Virus record (IMG/VR): IMGVR_UViG_647533159_000003
Reading direction: 5' to 3' (one strand)
DNA: 46,723 nucleotides
DNA from: a virus
Taxonomy: Duplodnaviria > Heunggongvirae > Uroviricota > Caudoviricetes
This document shows positions 7,119 to 44,050 of this stretch, piece after piece. Under the pieces are notes generated by a model. That model saw only the letters and a list, made by a program, of their open reading frames with translations, did no database searches and was not told the DNA's origin. Numbering within the stretch: the stretch's first letter is position 1; every line of letters starts with the position of its first letter. The translations under genes were made by a program, and so were the position numbers.

Positions 7119-7527
7119 ACACATCCGCATGGCGATGAATGCCTGGGCGCATCCGGACGGTGAAAAAGTTCCGGCAGCTGAAATAACCCGGGCTTATTTT
7201 GAGCTGGGTATGACGTTCCCGGAGCTATATGACGACAGGCATCCGGAAGCCCTGGCTCGCAATACTCAGAAAATTTTCCGCTGGGTGGAGAAAGACACCC
7301 CTGATGCGGTTAAGAAAATTCAGGCGTTGTTACCAGCTATCGAAAAAGCAATGCCGCCTCTGCTGGTGGCCCGAATGCGCAGCCACAGTTCAGCCTATTT
7401 TCGGGAGCTGGTGGAGACGCGGGAACGACTGGTGAGAGACGCTGATGATTTTGTCGCAGTGGCGATCGCTGGTTTCAACCAGATGAATCGTGGTGGCCCG
7501 GCGGGAAATATTGTGGTTGTGCATTGA
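7102..7527 (+). CDS. YdaT-like protein (reported CII functional analogue / toxic when derepressed)
   Basis: N-terminus MKIKHEHI..., 141 aa, directly after the YdaS-like gene. Confidence 0.7.
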   Translation: MKIKHEHIRMAMNAWAHPDGEKVPAAEITRAYFELGMTFPELYDDRHPEALARNTQKIFRWVEKDTPDAVKKIQALLPAIEKAMPPLLVARMRSHSSAYFRELVETRERLVRDADDFVAVAIAGFNQMNRGGPAGNIVVVH

Positions 7528-7598
7528 CTGACAATATTCATACCGGATCGCTTCCGGCAATTCGTGAATAAAAAGATTCGGTATCAGAAGAGGTGAGT

Positions 7599-8546
7599 AT
7601 GGCTAACGCCTGGCTCAGATTATGGCATGACATGCCAAATGATCCTAAGTGGCGAACAATTTCCAGGGTGTCAGGACAGCCAATCGCAACAGTGATGGCT
7701 GTGTATATCCACCTTCTGGTGAGCGCGTCACGAAATGTCACGACATGTCACGGCGTGTCACTACGTGGTCACATTGATGTCACGACGGAAGATTTAGCAA
7801 GTGCGCTTGATGTGACGGAAGAAGTAATTGATTCAATTTTACAGGCAATGCAGGGGCGGGTACTTGATGGAGATTTAATCTCTGGATGGGAAAAACGCCA
7901 GGTACTGAAAGAGGACAATGGCAACGTTTCACAAACCGCGAAATCCCCGGCAGAGCGCAAGAGAGCGCAGCGCGAGAGGGAAAAATTACGAAAACAGAAT
8001 GAGGGGGGTCATGACGAGTCACGCATATGTCACGACATGTCACGACGAGTCACGACAGATAAAGATACAGATAAAGAATTAAACCCCACACATAACGCGC
8101 GCGTGTGCGAGAGTGCTCCGACCAGTGAGTCGAATGGCGTGCCGTTGCAGGCAGCGGAACCTGATTACCTGGAAGGCCTGAGCGAACCCATCGGGAAATT
8201 TCCGATGACTGATGGCTGGCATCCGTCGCCGGATTTTCGACGGCGGGCAGCTCTGTGGGGAGTGGCTCTGCCGGAGCCGGAATTTACACCAGCTGAACTT
8301 GCCGCCTTCCGGGACTACTGGGCAGCGGAGGGCAAAGTGTTCACGCAGGTTCAGTGGGAGCAGAAATTCGCCCGTCACGTAAATCACGTCAGGGCGCAGG
8401 TTAAACCAGTCAGCAAGGGGGTAAACCATGCAGCAACGCCAGGTGGCACCGCATCACGGGCAGTTCAGGAAATTCGGGCAGCACGTGAGCAGTGGGAACG
8501 TGAAAACGGATTTATCAGCGACGGAAACGGCGTGGAAGCTGTGGGA
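7599..8546 (+). CDS. Replication initiation protein (DUF1376-type N-terminus, DnaT-like C-terminal region); 3' end lost in N run
   Basis: MANAWLRLWHDMPNDPKWRTI... N-terminus; iteron clusters embedded in the gene; AGAGG SD before ATG 7599. Confidence 0.7.
7724..7788 (+). repeat. Iteron cluster 1 (about 6 copies of a GTCAC(G) motif), putative ori
   Basis: gtcacgaaatgtcacgacatgtcacggcgtgtcactacgtggtcacattgatgtcacgacgg. Confidence 0.6.
8008..8056 (+). repeat. Iteron cluster 2 (about 5 copies of GTCACGAC-like motif)
   Basis: gtcatgacgagtcacgcatatgtcacgacatgtcacgacgagtcacgac, about 220 bp downstream of cluster 1. Confidence 0.6.
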
Positions 8547-9391
8547 NNNNNNNNNNNNNNNNNNNNNNNNNNNNNNNNNNNNNNNNNNNNNNNNNNNNNN
8601 NNNNNNNNNNNNNNNNNNNNNNNNNNNNNNNNNNNNNNNNNNNNNNNNNNNNNNNNNNNNNNNNNNNNNNNNNNNNNNNNNNNNNNNNNNNNNNNNNNNN
8701 NNNNNNNNNNNNNNNNNNNNNNNNNNNNNNNNNNNNNNNNNNNNNNNNNNNNNNNNNNNNNNNNNNNNNNNNNNNNNNNNNNNNNNNNNNNNNNNNNNNN
8801 NNNNNNNNNNNNNNNNNNNNNNNNNNNNNNNNNNNNNNNNNNNNNNNNNNNNNNNNNNNNNNNNNNNNNNNNNNNNNNNNNNNNNNNNNNNNNNNNNNNN
8901 NNNNNNNNNNNNNNNNNNNNNNNNNNNNNNNNNNNNNNNNNNNNNNNNNNNNNNNNNNNNNNNNNNNNNNNNNNNNNNNNNNNNNNNNNNNNNNNNNNNN
9001 NNNNNNNNNNNNNNNNNNNNNNNNNNNNNNNNNNNNNNNNNNNNNNNNNNNNNNNNNNNNNNNNNNNNNNNNNNNNNNNNNNNNNNNNNNNNNNNNNNNN
9101 NNNNNNNNNNNNNNNNNNNNNNNNNNNNNNNNNNNNNNNNNNNNNNNNNNNNNNNNNNNNNNNNNNNNNNNNNNNNNNNNNNNNNNNNNNNNNNNNNNNN
9201 NNNNNNNNNNNNNNNNNNNNNNNNNNNNNNNNNNNNNNNNNNNNNNNNNNNNNNNNNNNNNNNNNNNNNNNNNNNNNNNNNNNNNNNNNNNNNNNNNNNN
9301 NNNNNNNNNNNNNNNNNNNNNNNNNNNNNNNNNNNNNNNNNNNNNNNNNNNNNNNNNNNNNNNNNNNNNNNNNNNNNNNNNNNNNNNNNNN
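8547..9391. other. Run of 845 N (assembly gap or masked sequence)
   Basis: Uninterrupted n characters; length not a multiple of 3, so the reading frame is not preserved across it. Confidence 0.99.
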
Positions 9392-14449: not shown

Positions 14450-15496
14450 GTGCGGGTATTACTTCGACCTGTTCCGATACCGGAACTCGGGCTGGTGGTC
14501 CTTAAACCAGGCCGTGAATCCATGCAGGTATTTCATAACCCTCGAGTGCTGGTGGAGCCGGAACCGAAAAGCATGCGAGGTCTGCCATCCGGAGTCGTTC
14601 CTGCCGTTCGCCAGCCGCTGGCGGAGGATAAATCATTACTGCCATTTTTCAGCGATGAGCGGGTGATTCGTGCTGCTGGCGGCGCTGGTGCACTGTCTGA
14701 CTGGCTGTTGCGTCATATCAAATCCTGCCAGTGGCCTCATGGTGACTACCACCACAGCGAAACCGTCATACATCGTTACGGTACCGGCGCGATGGTGTTG
14801 TGCTGGCACTGCGACAACCAGCTGCGTGACCAGACTTCCGAATCACTCGGGCAACTTGCTCATCGAAACCTGTCAGCATGGATGATTGACGTCATACGCC
14901 ATGCAATGAACGGCACGCAGGAGCGGGAACTGTCGCTGGCTGAATTATCCTGGTGGGCGGTCCGCAATCAGGTGGCGGACGCGCTACCGGAAGCGGTATT
15001 ACGTCGTTCGCTGGGGTTGCGTGCGGAAAAAATCCGCTCAATGTACCGTGAAAGCGACATAGTACCGGGAGAGCAGACCGCCACCAGCATACTGAAGCAG
15101 CGCACAAAAAATCTTGCGCCGCTGCCTCACGCCCACCAGCAAAACCCGCCACAGGAAAAGACGGTGGTCAGCATTGCCGTTGATCCGGAGTCTCCTGAAT
15201 CTTTCATGAAGCGACCTAAACGTCGCCGTTGGGTAAATGAGAAATATACGCGCTGGGTAAAGACACAGCCGTGTGAGTGTTGTGGTAAGCCAGCCGACGA
15301 TCCCCATCACCTGATTGGTCATGGTCAGGGCGGAATGGGAACAAAATCCCACGATATTTTTACGCTACCGCTGTGCCGGGAGCATCACAATGAACTTCAT
15401 GCTGATCCGCTGGCATTTGAAGAAAAGCATGGTTCCCAGATTGATTTAATTTTTCGTTTTCTTGATCACGCCTTTGCAACCGGCGTGCTCGGGTAA
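14450..15496 (+). CDS. DUF968 family protein (YdfU-like; C-terminal HNH-like Cys/His cluster)
   Basis: GGAGG SD then GTG; C-terminus CECCGKPADDPHHLIGHGQGG...CREHHNELH. Confidence 0.75.
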   Translation: MRVLLRPVPIPELGLVVLKPGRESMQVFHNPRVLVEPEPKSMRGLPSGVVPAVRQPLAEDKSLLPFFSDERVIRAAGGAGALSDWLLRHIKSCQWPHGDYHHSETVIHRYGTGAMVLCWHCDNQLRDQTSESLGQLAHRNLSAWMIDVIRHAMNGTQERELSLAELSWWAVRNQVADALPEAVLRRSLGLRAEKIRSMYRESDIVPGEQTATSILKQRTKNLAPLPHAHQQNPPQEKTVVSIAVDPESPESFMKRPKRRRWVNEKYTRWVKTQPCECCGKPADDPHHLIGHGQGGMGTKSHDIFTLPLCREHHNELHADPLAFEEKHGSQIDLIFRFLDHAFATGVLG

Positions 15497-15508: not shown

Positions 15509-15868
15509 ATGCGTATAGAGTTTGTTTTGCCTTACCCACCGACAGTGAACACCTACTGGCGGCGTCGTGGCAGCACATATTTTGTATCAAAAGCCGGTGA
15601 GCGTTATCGCAGGGACGTTGCGCTTATCGTTCGTCAACTGCAATTGAAATTAAATCTGTCCGGAAGGCTGGCGATAAAGATTATTGCAGAGCCGCCGGAT
15701 AAGCGCCGTCGTGACTTGGACAACATTCTGAAAGCACCACTGGATGCACTGACGCATGCGGGGCTTCTCATAGACGACGAGCAGTTTGATGAAATTAATA
15801 TTGTGCGCGGTCTTCCTGTTCCTGGTGGTCGGTTGGGGATAAAAATCACAGAACTGGAGTGCGCATGA
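15509..15868 (+). CDS. rusA: Holliday junction resolvase RusA
   Basis: 119 aa; ...DKRRRDLDNILKAPLDALTHAGLLIDD... matches the RusA family. Confidence 0.85.
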   Translation: MRIEFVLPYPPTVNTYWRRRGSTYFVSKAGERYRRDVALIVRQLQLKLNLSGRLAIKIIAEPPDKRRRDLDNILKAPLDALTHAGLLIDDEQFDEINIVRGLPVPGGRLGIKITELECA

Positions 15869-16554
15869 ATAACCAGTATTTACAGTTTGTTCGTGAGCAG
15901 CTCATTATCGCCACCGCCGATTTGAGTGGGGCAACAAAAGGCCAGCTTGAAGCCTGGCTGGAGAATGCCATGTTCGATACAGGGCGTTACAGGCGTAAAA
16001 AAATCCGGTACCGCGATGAAGTGACTGGAAAAATGATCACGCGGGATAATCCACCAATCCCGGGGAAACAATCGCTGGCAAAGGGGACGTCAATTCCTCT
16101 GGTAAGTCAGGTTGAGTTTTCGACATCATCATGGCGACGGGCAGTTCTGTCTCTTGAAGAACACCATAAAGCCTGGTTGCTGTGGTGTTACAGCGGCAGC
16201 ATTTGCTGGGAACACCAGATTGCGATAACACAGTGGGTGTGGAATGAATTTAACGCCCAATCCGGTACCAGAAAAATTGCAGGGAAAACGCTGGAGCGCC
16301 TGAAAAAATTAATCTGGCTGGCGGCACAGGATGTGAAGAGTGAGCTGGCTGGGCGTGAAACTTATGAATATCAGGAGCTGGCATTACTGGCGGGAGTAAC
16401 AACAAAAAACTGGTCCAAAACATTTACTGGTCACTGGGTTGCAATGAAACACATTTTCCACCGTCTGGATAGTGAGGCTTTATTGTTTGTGATGAGAACA
16501 CGTTCAGAACAAAAGGCGGCATTTTCAAAGCAAAGTGTTGCAAAAGTAGATTAA
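15865..16554 (+). CDS. Putative late-gene antiterminator Q
   Basis: ATG overlaps the rusA stop (ATGA); sits directly upstream of a strong promoter plus terminator (PR'/tR'-like). Confidence 0.6.
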   Translation: MNNQYLQFVREQLIIATADLSGATKGQLEAWLENAMFDTGRYRRKKIRYRDEVTGKMITRDNPPIPGKQSLAKGTSIPLVSQVEFSTSSWRRAVLSLEEHHKAWLLWCYSGSICWEHQIAITQWVWNEFNAQSGTRKIAGKTLERLKKLIWLAAQDVKSELAGRETYEYQELALLAGVTTKNWSKTFTGHWVAMKHIFHRLDSEALLFVMRTRSEQKAAFSKQSVAKVD

Positions 16555-16566
16555 AAGGCATATATT
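16538..16566 (+). promoter_or_regulatory. Late promoter candidate (PR'-like)
   Basis: TTGCAA (16538-16543)-17 nt-TATATT (16561-16566), overlapping the Q stop codon. Confidence 0.55.
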
Positions 16567-16616
16567 TCGTGCAAATCTGATATTTTGCCGATTTTGTACA
16601 CGATGGCAAAGCAAGC

Positions 16617-16644
16617 AAAACCCGCTGCCGAGCGGGTTTTTTTA
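16617..16644 (+). terminator. Rho-independent terminator about 50 nt downstream of the late promoter (tR'-like)
   Basis: CCCGCT-gccg-AGCGGG followed by TTTTTTT. Confidence 0.75.
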
Positions 16645-16878
16645 TGTCCGCAAAATGGCGTGGAAGAAAAAATTAATCAGATTGTAACTGAGATAAAAAA
16701 CAATCGTTAAATATGCATTTAATAATTTCTTTATTTCATAAAAAATAAAAACATATATGTATATTTACAAATCTTGATGTGATTTTCCATTGAAAAGAGA
16801 GCTGGTATTATTAATATCGGTCCCCGGTTCCGAAGGGGATGTAAGCGCGGTCATTTTTATTTCTCTTGAGGAACCAGT

Positions 16879-16954
<76 letters not shown>

Positions 16955-16957
16955 TAT

Positions 16958-17032
<75 letters not shown>

Positions 17033-17299
17033 TAGTAGTAAGGCGAGATTGTGTTATGCACTGACACATTATATATGTGGGGATGGTTTTTGGCCTCTTT
17101 ATCCACGTCCCGTTCTGTAATGAGTGATACCAATTGCAGTCCAGTGCTATTTTTTTACACCATCGGAATGGTGCATCATTGGTAGAGATTTGCAATATCT
17201 CTGGCAGGGTCGGTGATGCATCATCCCGATGTTGTAAACATCGCTAAACGTGACATTGAGATTAATCATATACTAATCAAAATCTGGTAATACATCCTT

Positions 17300-17326
17300 A
17301 ACCGCCGTACCAGGCGGTTTTTTTTA
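17300..17326 (+). terminator. Rho-independent terminator downstream of the tRNA pair
   Basis: CCGCC-gtacca-GGCGG followed by 8 T. Confidence 0.7.
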
Positions 17327-17345
17327 TTCACAATACTGTTTCTTA

Positions 17346-17370
17346 TGGCTCGCTACGGCGGGCTTTTTTC
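17346..17370 (+). terminator. Second tandem terminator
   Basis: GCTCGC-tacg-GCGGGC (one G-U pair) followed by TTTTTT. Confidence 0.6.
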
Positions 17371-17430
17371 ATGTATACCCTGGCGGTTATTATGACGGCT
17401 TGTTTTTTTGTTCATAAGAGGATTGATACA

Positions 17431-17934
17431 GTGGTCACTTATGCGGATATCAGGGCGAAACAAGCCGAAATTCTGAAAGCTGAGCAGGAATACATTCAGC
17501 GGTTGCGGGATACAGCCAAAAGGCTGGTCAGTGTTTATGAAGACTCACTGGAATTGCCAGCTTCACAGTGGCGCGATATTAACGGCAAAGAACGTCCGTA
17601 TGTTTATATTTTGTGGAATGGGCACAATACAAAACCTGAGGATTTGCGAGTAGAGCTTCAGGATGGTGTCGCATTTGATTTGTGGACTGTCGTTGATGAT
17701 AACCCTCGTCAGTCTGCAAGCGTGAAGGTTGCGGTAAAGATTGTGTTGCTTGATGGCGATAACATAACGATTTCGGTTAATGGTTATCAGGTCAGAACAT
17801 TTTCGCACGTAGATTCGCACGCAAAATTTAACGAGGTATGCGAGTTCATCAAAGACAGTATTTTAATGTCGATGAATGATGTGAAATTTGGCAAAGCATC
17901 TCTTCCGAAGATAGAGGGCTGGAGCCGAAAATAG
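17431..17934 (+). CDS. Hypothetical cargo protein (167 aa) at the Q-lysis moron locus
   Basis: AAGAGGA SD 8 nt before GTG 17431 (the in-frame ATG 17371 abuts a terminator, so is unlikely to be the start). Confidence 0.6.
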   Translation: MVTYADIRAKQAEILKAEQEYIQRLRDTAKRLVSVYEDSLELPASQWRDINGKERPYVYILWNGHNTKPEDLRVELQDGVAFDLWTVVDDNPRQSASVKVAVKIVLLDGDNITISVNGYQVRTFSHVDSHAKFNEVCEFIKDSILMSMNDVKFGKASLPKIEGWSRK

Positions 17935-17956
17935 TTCGAAAATCTCTGAATCACCA

Positions 17957-17982
17957 GGCTACGCATTTGCGTGGCCTTTTTT
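17957..17982 (+). terminator. Rho-independent terminator after the cargo gene
   Basis: Imperfect hairpin GGCTACGC/GCGTGGCC followed by TTTTTT. Confidence 0.6.
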
Positions 17983-18118
17983 GTATCCGCGCCACGCCCG
18001 GCGCACATCAAAAACCACAGAGCCTTTCAGGGGTGAGCTTACGGGATGGTCAGTGTGACTTTCTCTGTGGGCTGGTCACCCCCGGGCGCAGGCTCACCCA
18101 CTAAAAGGAAAAGTCACG

Positions 18119-18544
18119 ATGTTTGGTATTTTCAAAAAGAAAACCCGCAAGGCCATTACTGAAGTAAAGAAAATGGAGAACCGCGACGCAGTGGAGGCGA
18201 CCGTCTGGGGTGCGTATTCCATCGCATTCGCCGACGGCACCTGTGATGCGAAAGAAATCGCGGTGCTGGAGAAAACCATTGCAGCACTTCCTGCTTTTGC
18301 GCCGTTCTCCGGTGAGATTGCACAAATGAGTGCAAATATCCGCGCCCGTTATGAAGCGTCGCCGCGTTCTGCCAATGCCGAAGCTCTTCGTCAGCTGGCT
18401 GATGTTGCCGGTACTGATGATGCAGTTAATGTGCTGTGCCTGTGTCTGGATATCGCTGACCAGGATGGCATTGGTCCGGATGAAGAAGCACAGCTCAAGA
18501 AAATTGCTCAGGCGCTGCAGTTGCCGCTGGAGCAGTACCTGTGA
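18119..18544 (+). CDS. TerB-like (tellurite-resistance TerB domain) protein
   Basis: 141 aa; two repeats of the pattern I(A)xADGxxDxxE...L (SIAFADGTCDAKEIAVLEK...; LDIADQDGIGPDEEAQLKK). Confidence 0.55.
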   Translation: MFGIFKKKTRKAITEVKKMENRDAVEATVWGAYSIAFADGTCDAKEIAVLEKTIAALPAFAPFSGEIAQMSANIRARYEASPRSANAEALRQLADVAGTDDAVNVLCLCLDIADQDGIGPDEEAQLKKIAQALQLPLEQYL

Positions 18545-18693
18545 AAAGTGCGCGCCTTGTGTTGGCTGCCATCCTGCTGTTTCTGGTGGTGGCGGTGGAT
18601 TTCACCGGACGGCTGATGTCGGTGCTGGCAGATGGTGTGCTGGTGGCGATGGCGCTGGTTGTGCTCCGGCCTTTACTGCGCAAATCTGAATAA
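18541..18693 (+). CDS. Putative 50-aa two-TM membrane peptide coupled to the TerB-like gene
   Basis: GTG 18541 overlaps the TerB stop (CTGTGA); VKSARLVLAAILLFLVVAVDFTGRLMSVLADGVLVAMALVVLRPLLRKSE. Confidence 0.3.
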   Translation: MKSARLVLAAILLFLVVAVDFTGRLMSVLADGVLVAMALVVLRPLLRKSE

Positions 18694-18741
18694 CATCACA
18701 CAAAAGGCATCTGCGGGTGCCTTTGACGGGGTGTTTTTTAC

Positions 18742-18763
18742 GGGCCGCTGGTGGCCCTTTTTT
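18742..18763 (+). terminator. Rho-independent terminator closing the TerB-like cassette
   Basis: GGGCC-gctggt-GGCCC followed by TTTTTT. Confidence 0.65.
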
Positions 18764-18783
18764 ATTTACAGGAGAAAAAAAGT

Positions 18784-19176
18784 ATGTCTGAACCCTTATC
18801 CGGTTCCGGCACGGCTGCGGCGCTCGGCGGGGCGACGGTATTCGGGCTGTTTACCGGAACGGATTTCGGGATTGTGTTTGGTGCGTTCGCCGGGGCGTTA
18901 TTTGTGGCAACAATTCCGCAGGCGCTTTCAGCCTGGCGTGTGGCGGCGCATTTTCTGGTGTCGTTCATTATCGGCGTGCTGGGGGCAGAGGTTCTGGCAT
19001 CCTGGCTGGTAAAGCACACAGGGTTTGACGGTGCACCTGTCGACGCATTGTGTGCAGTACTGGTGTCAGTGGTGTCGGTGAAGATTCTCTCGTTCATCCA
19101 CCAGCAGGATATTGCATCACTGGTGTCCGGCCTGTTCTCCCGCCTGCGGGGTGGAGGAGGCGGCAATGTTAAGTAA
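18784..19176 (+). CDS. Putative holin (Gly-rich multi-TM membrane protein)
   Basis: AGGAG SD; three hydrophobic segments; directly upstream of the endolysin block. Confidence 0.5.
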   Translation: MSEPLSGSGTAAALGGATVFGLFTGTDFGIVFGAFAGALFVATIPQALSAWRVAAHFLVSFIIGVLGAEVLASWLVKHTGFDGAPVDALCAVLVSVVSVKILSFIHQQDIASLVSGLFSRLRGGGGGNVK

Positions 19177-19441
19177 CCTTCCCGGATTACTGAATGTGGC
19201 GTTATGCACGGTTATCGTGCTGACGCTCTTTTTTTATCGTCGTCGTGACTCCAGACACAAACCGCTGATGTCATGGCTGGCCTGGCTGCTGATGCTGCTT
19301 TATGCCTTTGCGCCCCTCAGCTATCTGTGTGGTCGCCCGTTAGCGGCGAACTGGCTGGCGGTGGGGCTTAATCTGCTGTTCTGCGTGCTGGTGATACGTG
19401 CACGCGGGAACGTTTCAAAAATTCTTTCATTCCGGAGGTGA
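19166..19441 (+). CDS. Putative second holin/antiholin-type membrane protein
   Basis: GGAGGAGG SD; overlaps the preceding ORF by 11 nt; 2-3 TM segments. Confidence 0.45.
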   Translation: MLSNLPGLLNVALCTVIVLTLFFYRRRDSRHKPLMSWLAWLLMLLYAFAPLSYLCGRPLAANWLAVGLNLLFCVLVIRARGNVSKILSFRR

Positions 19442-19443
19442 GT

Positions 19444-19821
19444 ATGTCGGGTAAATTCAGATTCAGCCGTCGCAGTGAAAAAAATCTGGAGGGCGTTAAA
19501 CCACAGCTGGTTGCTGTAGTTCGCCGTGCGCTGGAGCTGACGGAGGTTGATTTCGGTATTACGGAAGGGCTGCGCACGAAAGAACGCCAGAAACAGCTGG
19601 TTGCAGAAGGTAAGAGCCGGACCATGAACAGCCGCCACCTGACCGGTGATGCGGTGGATGTTGTGGCCTACATTGGCAGCCAGGTGTCATGGGACTGGCC
19701 TCTGTACGAGAAAATCGCGCAGGCATTTAAGCAGGCTGCCGCAGAGCTGGGAACTGCCATCGAATGGGGCGGGGACTGGAAAACACTGAAAGACGGGCCT
19801 CACTTTCAGTTGAAACGCTGA
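19444..19821 (+). CDS. Endolysin, peptidase M15 family (L-alanyl-D-glutamate peptidase, T5 Lys-like)
   Basis: GGAGG SD 5 nt before ATG 19444; zinc-site-like HLTGDAVD and DGPHF; N-terminus resembles T5 endolysin. Confidence 0.8.
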   Translation: MSGKFRFSRRSEKNLEGVKPQLVAVVRRALELTEVDFGITEGLRTKERQKQLVAEGKSRTMNSRHLTGDAVDVVAYIGSQVSWDWPLYEKIAQAFKQAAAELGTAIEWGGDWKTLKDGPHFQLKR

Positions 19822-19853: not shown

Positions 19854-20417
19854 NNNNNNNNNNNNNNNNNNNNNNNNNNNNNNNNNNNNNNNNNNNNNNN
19901 NNNNNNNNNNNNNNNNNNNNNNNNNNNNNNNNNNNNNNNNNNNNNNNNNNNNNNNNNNNNNNNNNNNNNNNNNNNNNNNNNNNNNNNNNNNNNNNNNNNN
20001 NNNNNNNNNNNNNNNNNNNNNNNNNNNNNNNNNNNNNNNNNNNNNNNNNNNNNNNNNNNNNNNNNNNNNNNNNNNNNNNNNNNNNNNNNNNNNNNNNNNN
20101 NNNNNNNNNNNNNNNNNNNNNNNNNNNNNNNNNNNNNNNNNNNNNNNNNNNNNNNNNNNNNNNNNNNNNNNNNNNNNNNNNNNNNNNNNNNNNNNNNNNN
20201 NNNNNNNNNNNNNNNNNNNNNNNNNNNNNNNNNNNNNNNNNNNNNNNNNNNNNNNNNNNNNNNNNNNNNNNNNNNNNNNNNNNNNNNNNNNNNNNNNNNN
20301 NNNNNNNNNNNNNNNNNNNNNNNNNNNNNNNNNNNNNNNNNNNNNNNNNNNNNNNNNNNNNNNNNNNNNNNNNNNNNNNNNNNNNNNNNNNNNNNNNNNN
20401 NNNNNNNNNNNNNNNNN
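19854..20417. other. Run of 564 N flanked by identical 102-bp sequence
   Basis: n characters; flanks are exact duplicates, suggesting an unresolved contig join or a masked insertion. Confidence 0.99.
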
Positions 20418-41367: not shown

Positions 41368-44050
41368 ATGTCTGTATTAATTTCGGGTGTGCTGACGGAT
41401 GGCACGGGACTCCCCATGTCCGGATACCATATTATTCTGAAAGCCCGACAGAATACATCCGCAGTGGTTATGAGAACGGTGGCAACAGTGGTGACGGGGC
41501 CGGCAGGAGAATATGCATTTGAGGCTCAGACCGGAAGATATGACGTTTATCTTCGGTCATGTATTGAAAGAGAATATTGTGTTGGTGATATTTCGGTTTA
41601 CGACGATTCAAAGCCCGGCACACTGAACGACTTTCTGACCGCCCTTGATGAAGGCGATTTAAAGCCGGATGTAGTGAAACGCTTTGAGGAACTGGTGGCG
41701 CAGGCGCAGCAGAGCGCGGAAGCGGCAGCGGAAAGCGAACGACAGGCCGGGCAACATGTCGCTGATGCGCAACAAATCAAGAGCGACTGCGAGACGCTGG
41801 CGGATAACGTACAGCAGAATGCAGAAGCCGTTGCCGAAGATAAAAAGCAGGTGGCACAGCTGGCATCATCTGCCACACAGGATGCCGCCCGCGCAGAGCA
41901 GGCTGTCAAGGATGCTGNNNNNNNNNNNNNNNNNNNNNNNNNNNNNNNNNNNNNNNNNNNNNNNNNNNNNNNNNNNNNNNNNNNNNNNNNNNNNNNNNNN
42001 NNNNNNNNNNNNNNNNNNNNNNNNNNNNNNNNNNNNNNNNNNNNNNNNNNNNNNNNNNNNNNNNNNNNNNNNNNNNNNNNNNNNNNNNNNNNNNNNNNNN
42101 NNNNNNNNNNNNNNNNNNNNNNNNNNNNNNNNNNNNNNNNNNNNNNNNNNNNNNNNNNNNNNNNNNNNNNNNNNNNNNNNNNNNNNNNNNNNNNNNNNNN
42201 NNNNNNNNNNNNNNNNNNNNNNNNNNNNNNNNNNNNNNNNNNNNNNNNNNNNNNNNNNNNNNNNNNNNNNNNNNNNNNNNNNNNNNNNNNNNNNNNNTAT
42301 TACACCTTTTCCACGCGAACGGAAGAAACCACCGGGGATAACAGAAATTATCTGGCTGGATAATGGCTGGGGCGACAAAACCAGCCAGACAGCAACAAAG
42401 CTGGTTCTGTTCTTTGGAAAAGACGGACGGATTCTTATGACCGTTCGTGGCGATAATATCTCCGCCCCGGTCACCTGGACGAATCTGACGCCACAACTGG
42501 GCAATGCAGCACAAAAGGATGCGCAGGAGAATATTTACGACCGCACCGAAGGCCGCCTGGCGATTCCTGGCATGTTCGGTTTCGGGAAAATATTTTCCAG
42601 TAGCGACAGAACTGAATTTAAATCAGGGACTGATTTTCTCAGGTGGGTAAAAACAGCAAAACCCGGTCGTTATACCGTATTTGCGGACACAAATGTGGTG
42701 GTACCTGGCATACAGACAAACGGTGTTATTGAAATTATCTGGCCACAACCTAAAACCAGCCCGAATGATGAGTATGCCTATAAGATAATTATTTATTACG
42801 GTGTTAATGGTCATATTTATTATAACCGTTGCGCGGTGTCATCAGATGGTGGTTATCTGGTTGGCTGGGAAAACCTGAAGGTTGATGAGGCTTCACTCAG
42901 GGCACTGATTGAAGCCCGCGCACCACTGAAAAGTCCGGCACTGACCGGAACTCCGACAGCACCAACACCGCCGGATGATGCAGCAGGTAATGAAATAGCC
43001 AATGCGGAGTTTGTCCGCAAACTGCTCGCTGCGCTGGTTGACTCATCACCTGAAGCCCTGGACACGCTGAACGAGCTGGCAGCGGCGCTGGGTAATGACC
43101 CGAACTTTGCGACAACGGTCACTAATGCACTGGCAGGTAAACAGCCGCTTAATGACGTGTTAACGGCTGTCAGCCAGATAATACCGGAAGAAAACACGCT
43201 GCCTTATTTCAGTGAAGAGGGCCGGATTTTACTGGCGCAGCTGTCAGAAAAAGCCCGCGCATTACTGGCACTGGACACACCTGAAGCCATGCGCACGGAG
43301 CTTGAGCTGAAAGCGGCTGCGACGATGGAATCCCAGAGCGATATCCGCGACCGTACACCGGGCAGGCTGGCGCTGTCCGGCATGTACGGATTCGGTCAGG
43401 CATTTACCAGCACCGACGCTCTGGCGTTTGACGGACAGGCTGATTTTGCTGAATGGCTGAAAGAGGCCACGCCGGGGCGTTATGCGGTCAGCATTGCGGA
43501 CTCTTCCACGCTGCTGGTTGGCACAACGAAATTTAACGGCATCATTGATGTAATGTGGTCGCCCTTTGATAACGATGAGTCGGACACAACGCGCAAATTC
43601 AAAACGCTGCTGTGTTTTAACCAGTATTACGAAGGTGAGCACAGTATTCATCGCCTGACTTATCGCTGGAGTGGAAACAACTGGAATGCAACAGTAAGCC
43701 CTGTCATTTACGATGGCGATTCGCTGGCGTTCCTGCTGTCCCGAACGGCAGGCTCAGGCTCATATTTCAAATACCCGGCAGTGGGTGTTCCGGTGCTTGC
43801 TGTTTATCGCGGAACAACGTCCGGGGATAAAGAAATCAAAATTGGCCTGGGTGATGTGGTGCCAGGGTCACAACTGGGCGGAGTTAATCTTTCGTGCACA
43901 ATATCTTCTGCGGGGGCTGGCTCCTACGGTTCCACACCGAGTGCAGGAGCTACAGGGTACACTTTTCCGGGGCGTTATATGGCGTTATCCGGGGTCAGGG
44001 ACTCTTACGGAACAAGCGGTCGTATCTGCCTGTTTGTGCGCATCGAGTAA
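41368..44050 (+). CDS. Side tail fibre (lambda Stf-like N-terminus, P2 H-like central collar), interrupted by an N run
   Basis: N-terminus ...ISGVLTDGTGLP...ILKARQNTSAVV...VYDDSKPGTLNDFL... resembles lambda Stf; after the gap ...APLKSPALTGTPTAPT...LNELAAALGNDPNFATT.TNALAGKQP... resembles P2 H. Confidence 0.7.
41918..42297. other. Run of 380 N inside the fibre gene
   Basis: n characters; length mod 3 = 2, which explains the apparent frame change of the fibre ORF. Confidence 0.99.

Follow-up and report, generated by a model that had tools for sequence, protein, structure and literature searches.

A terminator-bounded single-gene cargo cassette at the stx slot of a lambdoid prophage

Results and Discussion

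[quoted passage not shown]

The stretch of DNA analysed, referred to here as the window, is a lambdoid prophage of 46,723 nt, and the window genes and terminators described below lie on the + strand. Genes for a DUF968 protein (14450-15496) and for RusA (15509-15868) precede the late antiterminator gene Q (15859-16554), the product of which belongs to the Q21-type family PF06323 (Pfam E=2.4e-94; phrog_304). A promoter scan identified TTGCAA-17-TATATT at 16538-16566 as a putative pR', and a terminator scan identified a hairpin of -16 kcal/mol at 16617-16640, followed by a T tract extending to 16647, as a putative tR'. The short transcript presumed to run from pR' to tR' (approximately 16570-16647) possibly corresponds to lambda 6S RNA or StxS. 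Matches to the Rfam families isrJ and isrK, which are Hfq-binding RNAs of Salmonella Gifsy-1, were seen at 16570-16641 with scores of 27.7 and 20.5 bits, below gathering. Two tRNA genes were then located with ARAGORN: tRNA-Thr(TGT) at 16879-16954 (Rfam tRNA, 73.8 bits) and tRNA-Gly(TCC) at 16958-17032 (65.6 bits). The gene studied here, at 17431-17934, is followed by a TerB-like gene (18119-18544) and an overlapping DUF3927/TciB-like gene (18541-18693), both assigned by Pfam and PHROG matches. A backbone double hairpin/terminator detected by folding and by the scan (18703-18763; also in locus L035) separates these from the lysis cassette (18784-19821), in which profile matches identified a holin (PF16931), a second holin (PF05449) and an M15 endolysin. 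The coordinates of Q, the tRNA genes and the holin and endolysin genes thus agree with the original prediction, made from the window sequence, that the gene lies after the late promoter and tRNA genes and before the lysis genes.

Three intrinsic terminators surround the gene: T1 (17300-17327; -12.4 kcal/mol, z -4.5) and T2 (17347-17370; -12.1 kcal/mol, z -4.7) upstream, and T3 (17956-17983; -15.9 kcal/mol, z -4.2) downstream. Not one shuffled sequence was as stable as T1, T2 or T3, and the 2.6-kb region 16400-19000 contains 12 terminator-like sites compared with 3.2 +/- 2.1 in shuffles, so the earlier description of two terminators before the gene and one after it was accurate. Variants of the T1 stem across loci preserve pairing. 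The description does need to be amended in one respect, in that T1 and T2 belong to the phage backbone and lie outside the cassette, with the cassette junction following the T tract of T2, whereas T3 is carried by the cassette itself.

A long RNA hairpin is found between tRNA-Gly and T1 (17157-17246; -41.9 kcal/mol, z -5.1). Its 29-bp stem is kept in 11 prophage loci, with compensatory double changes at three pairs, and in L003, L011 and L012 the apical part has been swapped for a different hairpin. The structure is also found in a prophage that lacks the cargo gene, and in part in the LT-IIb prophage SerU, and has no family in Rfam; it is a candidate prophage sRNA or trailer of the tRNA transcript. 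The window also contains three masked runs of N, at 8547-9391 (845 bases), 19854-20417 (564 bases) and 41918-42297 (380 bases). A peptide of approximately 30 residues is repeated in the translations on both sides of the 19854-20417 run, which suggests either that a masked insertion has duplicated flanks or that the assembly has a gap there.

Borders of the cassette and its empty site

The limits of the insertion were read from an alignment of the window with L032, an E. coli A36 prophage in which Q, the tRNA genes, T1 and T2 are as in the window and the cassette is absent. In L032 the sequence '...GGCGGGCCTTTTTCAT' runs straight into 'ATCCGCGCCACGCC...', which is the sequence found 3' of T3 in the window, giving a cassette of 612 bp at 17373-17984 that consists of a leader, the ORF and T3. 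Since the 3' half of T2 (GGGCTTTTTTCAT) resembles the 3' half of T3 (GGCCTTTTTTGT), the junction is not placeable to the base. Gain and loss of the cassette through recombination between these terminators is plausible. The GC content of the cassette is 0.41-0.47, compared with 0.53-0.57 in the downstream genes, and the cassette is carried by 27 of 5426 complete E. coli genomes (0.5%). Window 17373-17984 is a single-gene cargo cassette of the moron type, located directly 3' of a backbone terminator in the late-operon leader. A moron is recognized by its own 3' terminator, its absence from the same site in a close relative and a differing base composition, and these were found here in T3, in L032 and in the GC values, respectively; the presence/absence polymorphism with defined junctions and the GC content below that of the flanks thereby bear out the cargo status first proposed for this gene.

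A second cargo segment, consisting of the TerB-like and DUF3927/TciB-like genes (18011-18689), lies between the cargo ORF and the lysis genes. L035 and L010 lack the pair, and in both of them the holin leader comes directly after the cargo gene; the pair is an independent presence/absence cassette. The interval from Q to the holin gene is thus a backbone of terminators that accepts cassettes. Within the clade of the window the cargo ORFs are 68-98% identical, compared with 94-100% for the adjacent TerB gene, so the cargo alleles have either been swapped or diverged much faster than their flanks. In L036 (1-462; E. coli EC11 prophage) a prophage-borne ompC-type porin gene, another classic cargo of this neighbourhood, was observed in the opposite orientation, ahead of the methyltransferase/cargo region.

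The site was also compared with that of stx2, since the original prediction had placed the gene in the slot occupied by stx in Stx phages. In three viral contigs (L004, L005 and L009) the tRNA genes that precede the cassette share 92.5% identity with ileZ-argN-argO of Stx2 phages. After argO, the phage Stx2a_F723 reads 'GGCTCGCTTTTGCGGGCC TTTTTT AT|ATCTGCGCC...', with stx2A starting 90 nt from argO, and L004 reads 'GGCTCGCTACGGCGGGCC TTTTT CAT|ATATACC...', a homologous hairpin, with the GTG start codon 98 nt from argO. T2 of the window is homologous to this hairpin, which immediately precedes stx2A in Stx2 phages, and on the strength of this homology the placement in the stx slot holds at nucleotide resolution. 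The region 3' of the window tRNA genes also shares sequence with the LT-IIb prophage SerU.

Start codons and coding capacity of the cargo gene

The cargo gene extends from a GTG codon at 17431 to a TAG codon ending at 17934 and encodes 167 residues, within a frame that is open from 17371 to 17934. A Shine-Dalgarno sequence, AAGAGGA (17416-17422), lies 8 nt before the GTG. At the aligned column 17431, 18 related loci have GTG and the two most distant viral loci have ATG, and in the family at large the core start column is always ATG or GTG, with a purine-rich motif before it in all lineages. Pairwise comparisons with intact homologues gave dN/dS values of 0.13-0.29, at dS reaching 1.2 and beyond. 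The ORF, its start codon and its Shine-Dalgarno sequence therefore stand as first described, and the ORF is a genuine gene, as indicated by dN/dS, the start codon, the 122 homologous clusters described below and the confidence of the AlphaFold model.

An in-frame ATG (17392-17394) is located 13 codons before the GTG and is conserved. In most independent lineages (the window clade, L015, L019, L020, L023, L025, L028, L029, L030 and L031) an in-frame ATG with its own Shine-Dalgarno-like motif is present 11-14 codons before the core start; in L038 the distance is 6 codons, and L026 and L037 have the core start alone. These tandem starts (17392-17433 in the window) are kept across lineages of 20-50% protein identity. 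The sequence of the resulting N-terminal extension is not conserved, and the 13 residues from ATG 17392 are disordered in the AF2 model. It is possible that the two starts yield two isoforms, of 180 and 167 residues. The conserved TATTATG could represent a Shine-Dalgarno sequence plus the in-frame ATG or, alternatively, a -10 element. The start of the longest ORF, ATG 17371, was rejected, as it crosses the cassette junction and reads ATA in L004-type loci. A lipoprotein or membrane anchor within 'MYTLAVIMTAC' was likewise rejected, the stretch being too short and not conserved.

Decay of the ORF in closely related prophages had been named as evidence that would count against the original prediction, and it was found in part. 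L008 (1-1021; IMGVR_UViG_2529292882_000005) matches window 17429-18118 at every position apart from one deleted nucleotide (T17511), and an IS-like element whose transposase is encoded on the other strand separates the Shine-Dalgarno sequence from the GTG, so that this copy is decayed; the copy in L010 is frameshifted. In contrast, each of the 27 complete E. coli genomes with the cassette has a full-length copy that is annotated as an intact CDS. The inactivation of the near-identical L008 copy indicates that the cargo gene is dispensable.

The protein family and its predicted fold

The cargo protein matches the phrog_5091 HMM with E=8.3e-49 over residues 1-155, and all 92 aligned relatives match the same family. 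An exhaustive profile search returned 122 clusters at E<1e-3, nearly all of 155-185 residues; a word-indexed search returned only 20, from Escherichia, Salmonella, Citrobacter and Hafnia. Homologues are found in prophages of Hafnia, Kosakonia, Providencia, Yersinia and Chromobacterium and in phages of E. coli C, and several carriers are STEC or diarrhoeal isolates, others being commensal and wildlife isolates. Strains that carry the cassette include E. coli 52F4 (NZ_CM147848.1) and STEC383 (NZ_CP091026.1). No relative was found among the GTDB species-representative genomes, and a literature search by protein accessions and PHROG identifier found nothing. One candidate relative, P0032 (2983 residues, 21 matching stretches), was rejected as a PKD-repeat protein because its match is a sum of weak matches to the motif 'TVxDD..G'.

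The original prediction recognized no domain in the protein, and the profile and structure searches proposed with it lead to the same view: apart from phrog_5091, searches of Pfam, NCBIfam and PADLOC with the cargo protein and 92 relatives, and a PDB profile search, gave nothing meaningful, and Foldseek returned no match to the model. Sub-threshold matches to DUF3576 and MoaD were dismissed as chance. PADLOC-DB 2.0 gave no family-wide match to a defence HMM, with two isolated chance matches among 92 members, and Rfam gave no RNA family within the cassette. The protein has no TM segment or hydrophobic N-terminus (maximum KD19 = 1.25) and no signal peptide, and its pI is 5.9 (family median 5.2); it is small, acidic and soluble. 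The AlphaFold (AF2) model (pLDDT 86.7-87.7, pTM 0.79) combines an N-terminal helix of 36 residues with an antiparallel eight- or nine-stranded sheet and a C-terminal helix, its tail being disordered, and the protein is accordingly predicted to be an alpha/beta sandwich. Its resemblance to the FP domain (PI31/Fbxo7), type III secretion chaperones, and YbjN-like and frataxin-like sandwiches is one of fold class and is not evidence of homology; unlike these, the cargo protein has an unusually long N-terminal helix (36 residues), and no sequence or profile relationship links it to them. The phrog_5091 cargo is a conserved, structurally confident and uncharacterised family of phage accessory proteins.

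Genomic contexts of the family

The genomic surroundings of distant members, of 20-50% identity, were also recovered. The member from Yersinia lies between Q (PF06530) and the lysis genes, that from Kosakonia between Q (PF03589) and the holins, and that from Hafnia between a Q21-type Q and a holin gene. In phage CharmingMan the gene is preceded by Q and HNH and followed by TerB and TciB, and the 3' junction is the same, 'ATCCGCGCCACGC'. A member in an E. coli prophage and the member in L020 lie 3' of the lysis cassette. In Providencia and one further prophage the gene is the last of an Arc/antirepressor (immI-like) block, just before Dit-like baseplate genes, and in Chromobacterium it lies between the tape-measure region and a Dit-like gene. 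A member with 26% identity is located between gpA and the portal gene gpQ of P2-like phages of the PhiR44_2 type, an interval that is a documented defence hotspot of P2 (PMC9122126). The family therefore occupies the Q-lysis, post-lysis, P2 gpA-gpQ and immI-like operon accessory hotspots, in three types of phage. In the Yersinia enterocolitica prophage L023, a gene with an Acb2/Tad1-hairpin domain, from a family of anti-CBASS/anti-Thoeris sponges, was observed just after the lysis genes (7395-7631), sharing its late accessory neighbourhood with the phrog_5091 member of that prophage.

A 3' terminator accompanies the gene across the family. A hairpin with a T tract was found no more than 80 nt past the stop codon in 16 of 16 family loci, as opposed to 37 of 144 other ORFs from the same loci (Fisher p = 4e-9, among lineages that are not fully independent). 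As an alignment of the T3 hairpins in structural register with MAFFT was unsatisfactory, each locus was folded separately and a presence test was used. Many of the family terminators have a common outer stem, AGGC...GCCT, with differing inner stems. The presence of the terminator at all 16 loci and the shared outer stem indicate that gene and terminator form a mobile unit. Look-alike terminators of this kind, with AGGC...GCCT followed by T5-6 and CAT, GT or AT, were observed at the bounds of cassettes and at varied positions across prophages, including window 17347-17372 and 17956-17984, L030 2367-2395, and sites downstream of the gene in L023, L026, L029-L031 and L038. Such terminators may serve as linkers for recombination when cassettes are exchanged.

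Expression of the cassette

Taken as a whole, the locus is best explained, in our view and with moderate confidence, as a cassette in the stx slot that is quiet in the lysogen and expressed as late cargo by Q read-through, and, more speculatively, as one encoding a binding or inhibitor protein involved in conflict. In Stx phages transcription from pR' is constitutive but ends at tR', the tRNA genes have a promoter of their own between tR' and stx2AB, and the stx2 toxin genes are expressed through Q antitermination (PMC7547250, PMC6266700). By analogy with Stx phages, transcripts from pR' in the lysogen would end at tR' and those from a tRNA promoter at T1 and T2, and for this reason the cassette would be silent or weakly transcribed. 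T3 and the hairpins at 18703-18763 would bar stray transcription from the lysis genes. Upon induction, RNA polymerase modified by Q would pass tR', T1, T2 and T3, and the cargo protein would be produced at the head of the late transcript. The location of the gene on the late strand, downstream of Q and tR', was counted in favour of late expression, and the cargo is probably expressed in a Q-dependent manner, as the stx2 genes are.

The main rival to Q read-through is that the cassette is an autonomous moron acting in the lysogen, which we consider possible though doubtful. A weak sigma-70 promoter at the junction of T2 and the cassette (TTTTCA at 17366-17371 and TATTAT at 17388-17393) would be active in the repressed prophage, T3 would end the transcript, and the protein would protect the lysogen, for example by superinfection exclusion or anti-phage defence. 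The promoter-like sequence, TTTTCA-16-TATTAT at 17366-17393, spans the cassette junction and has 9 of 12 matches to the consensus, and L006, in which the upstream context is different, has TTCACC-17-TATAAT at the same place. However, promoter-like sites of such quality are common (9 in 2.6 kb, compared with 3.3 expected), and TATTATG is read at least as well as a Shine-Dalgarno sequence plus an in-frame ATG, the ATG lying inside the proposed -10. The 3' terminator found throughout the family would be futile if only a terminator-resistant polymerase transcribed the gene, and its presence with varied stems in 16 of 16 loci is what is expected if non-antiterminated transcription needs to be stopped. 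The conserved terminator therefore argues for some autonomous transcription, and suggests that some Q-independent transcription takes place in addition to read-through. The low GC content, the presence/absence polymorphism and the family member in the P2 gpA-gpQ defence hotspot also fit an autonomous moron, but there is no PADLOC match, and a small soluble protein with no effector or membrane domain would be atypical as a stand-alone defence.

Possible functions of the cargo protein

Returning to the reading of the cassette as late cargo, we tentatively propose that the protein acts by binding other proteins, as an inhibitor or adaptor in phage-host or phage-phage conflict, although this is the less secure part of the interpretation and could well prove wrong. 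It is suggested by a small, acidic, soluble protein that is dispensable, has fast-diverging alleles and occurs in accessory hotspots; the protein has no catalytic motif and the gene no conserved partner gene, and searches of Pfam, NCBIfam and PADLOC gave no enzyme, defence or toxin profile match. As an example, the protein might blunt a defence that is triggered by late phage proteins. Late expression would be poor timing against early-acting defences, which counts against a role in conflict. A broader speculation, which we regard as no better than a one-in-several chance, is that phrog_5091 represents a new family of conflict factors that act as single proteins, whether as counter-defence inhibitors or as defence/exclusion proteins. 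These would move as a gene plus terminator between lambdoid, P2-like and myovirus-type hotspots with look-alike terminators as linkers, and would have two isoforms determined by whether the transcript arises by Q read-through or within the cassette.

It is improbable that the protein serves the phage itself in its late functions, for instance in the timing of lysis or as a helper in virion or tail assembly. The gene does adjoin the lysis cassette in most lambdoid contexts, in myovirus-type prophages it lies directly 5' of Dit-like baseplate genes, with the L028 copy overlapping the Dit-like start, and the predicted fold is chaperone-like. Against this, the gene is dispensable, being absent from close relatives and present in 0.5% of complete E. 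coli genomes, its position varies over four unrelated genome contexts, one of them beside the P2 portal gene, and a terminator separates it from downstream structural genes.

The slot shared with stx2AB, the sequence 3' of the tRNA genes held in common with the LT-IIb prophage SerU, and the several STEC and diarrhoeal carriers raise the question of a lysogenic-conversion virulence factor released at phage lysis, like Stx or LT-II. We judge this very unlikely. The AB5 toxins are recognized by signal peptides and by A and B subunit domains, and the cassette holds a single gene, the product of which has no signal peptide, TM segment, or toxin or enzyme domain, and is therefore not an exported toxin of the Stx kind. 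Moreover, homologues occur in prophages of Hafnia, Kosakonia, Providencia, Yersinia and Chromobacterium and in phages of E. coli C, and carriers include commensal and wildlife isolates. That the ORF is decaying or non-functional and simply fills the slot is hardly credible and largely refuted, since, despite the decayed copies in L008 (otherwise identical to the window) and L010, it is excluded by the dN/dS of 0.13-0.29 and the confident fold prediction, and the 122 clusters of uniform length and 27 of 27 complete E. coli copies annotated as intact also stand against it.

Comparison with known systems

The cassette is a well-known kind of element, a moron or cargo gene in the Q-lysis hotspot, carrying a protein from an uncharacterised family. 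Since ORFs with no assigned role are common in this slot, the finding of cargo is unsurprising in itself. Classical lambdoid morons include those of HK97 and HK022 and the bor and lom genes of lambda, and the moron concept is that of Juhala, Hendrix and colleagues. Like these, the gene described here is an extra gene in some but not all close phages, differs in base composition, is delimited by a terminator and lies between modules. Unlike them, its upstream terminators belong to the backbone, and its own promoter is a candidate.

AtiEcA (orf64) of phi80 offers a precedent, being a counter-defence gene of the late operon that depends on Q (PMC11364771). It resembles the cargo gene in being a small accessory gene of a Q-dependent late operon near the boundary of lysis and packaging, and its product binds another protein; in contrast, no divergently transcribed partner defence gene adjoins the window ORF. 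Homology to Tai/Ati of phi80 is not supported, as phi80 is absent from the tblastn matches of the cargo protein. The cargo of the P2 old/tin hotspot, between gpA and gpQ (PMC9122126), offers a second parallel, in that a family member of 26% identity lies beside the portal gene in PhiR44_2-type phages, whereas phrog_5091 has no match to known defence profiles. The recurrence of the family in defence and accessory hotspots makes phrog_5091 a reasonable candidate for a defence or counter-defence screen.

A further comparison is with the stx2AB locus of Stx2-converting phages such as Stx2a_F723 and 933W/Sp5. In both cases the cargo comes after Q, pR', tR' and phage tRNA genes and before the lysis genes, and the junction falls within about 10-20 nt of the same backbone point, with a homologous hairpin terminator before it. 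The loci differ in that the window cargo is one cytoplasmic 19-kDa protein with its own 3' terminator, whereas stx2AB encodes an exported AB5 toxin. Shiga toxin and LT-II are both delivered from the Q-to-lysis leader of lambdoid prophages, and the cassette described here neatly illustrates terminator-bounded exchange at the stx slot. That one backbone point takes unrelated cassettes bounded by look-alike terminators clarifies how this hotspot is built and how its contents are exchanged.
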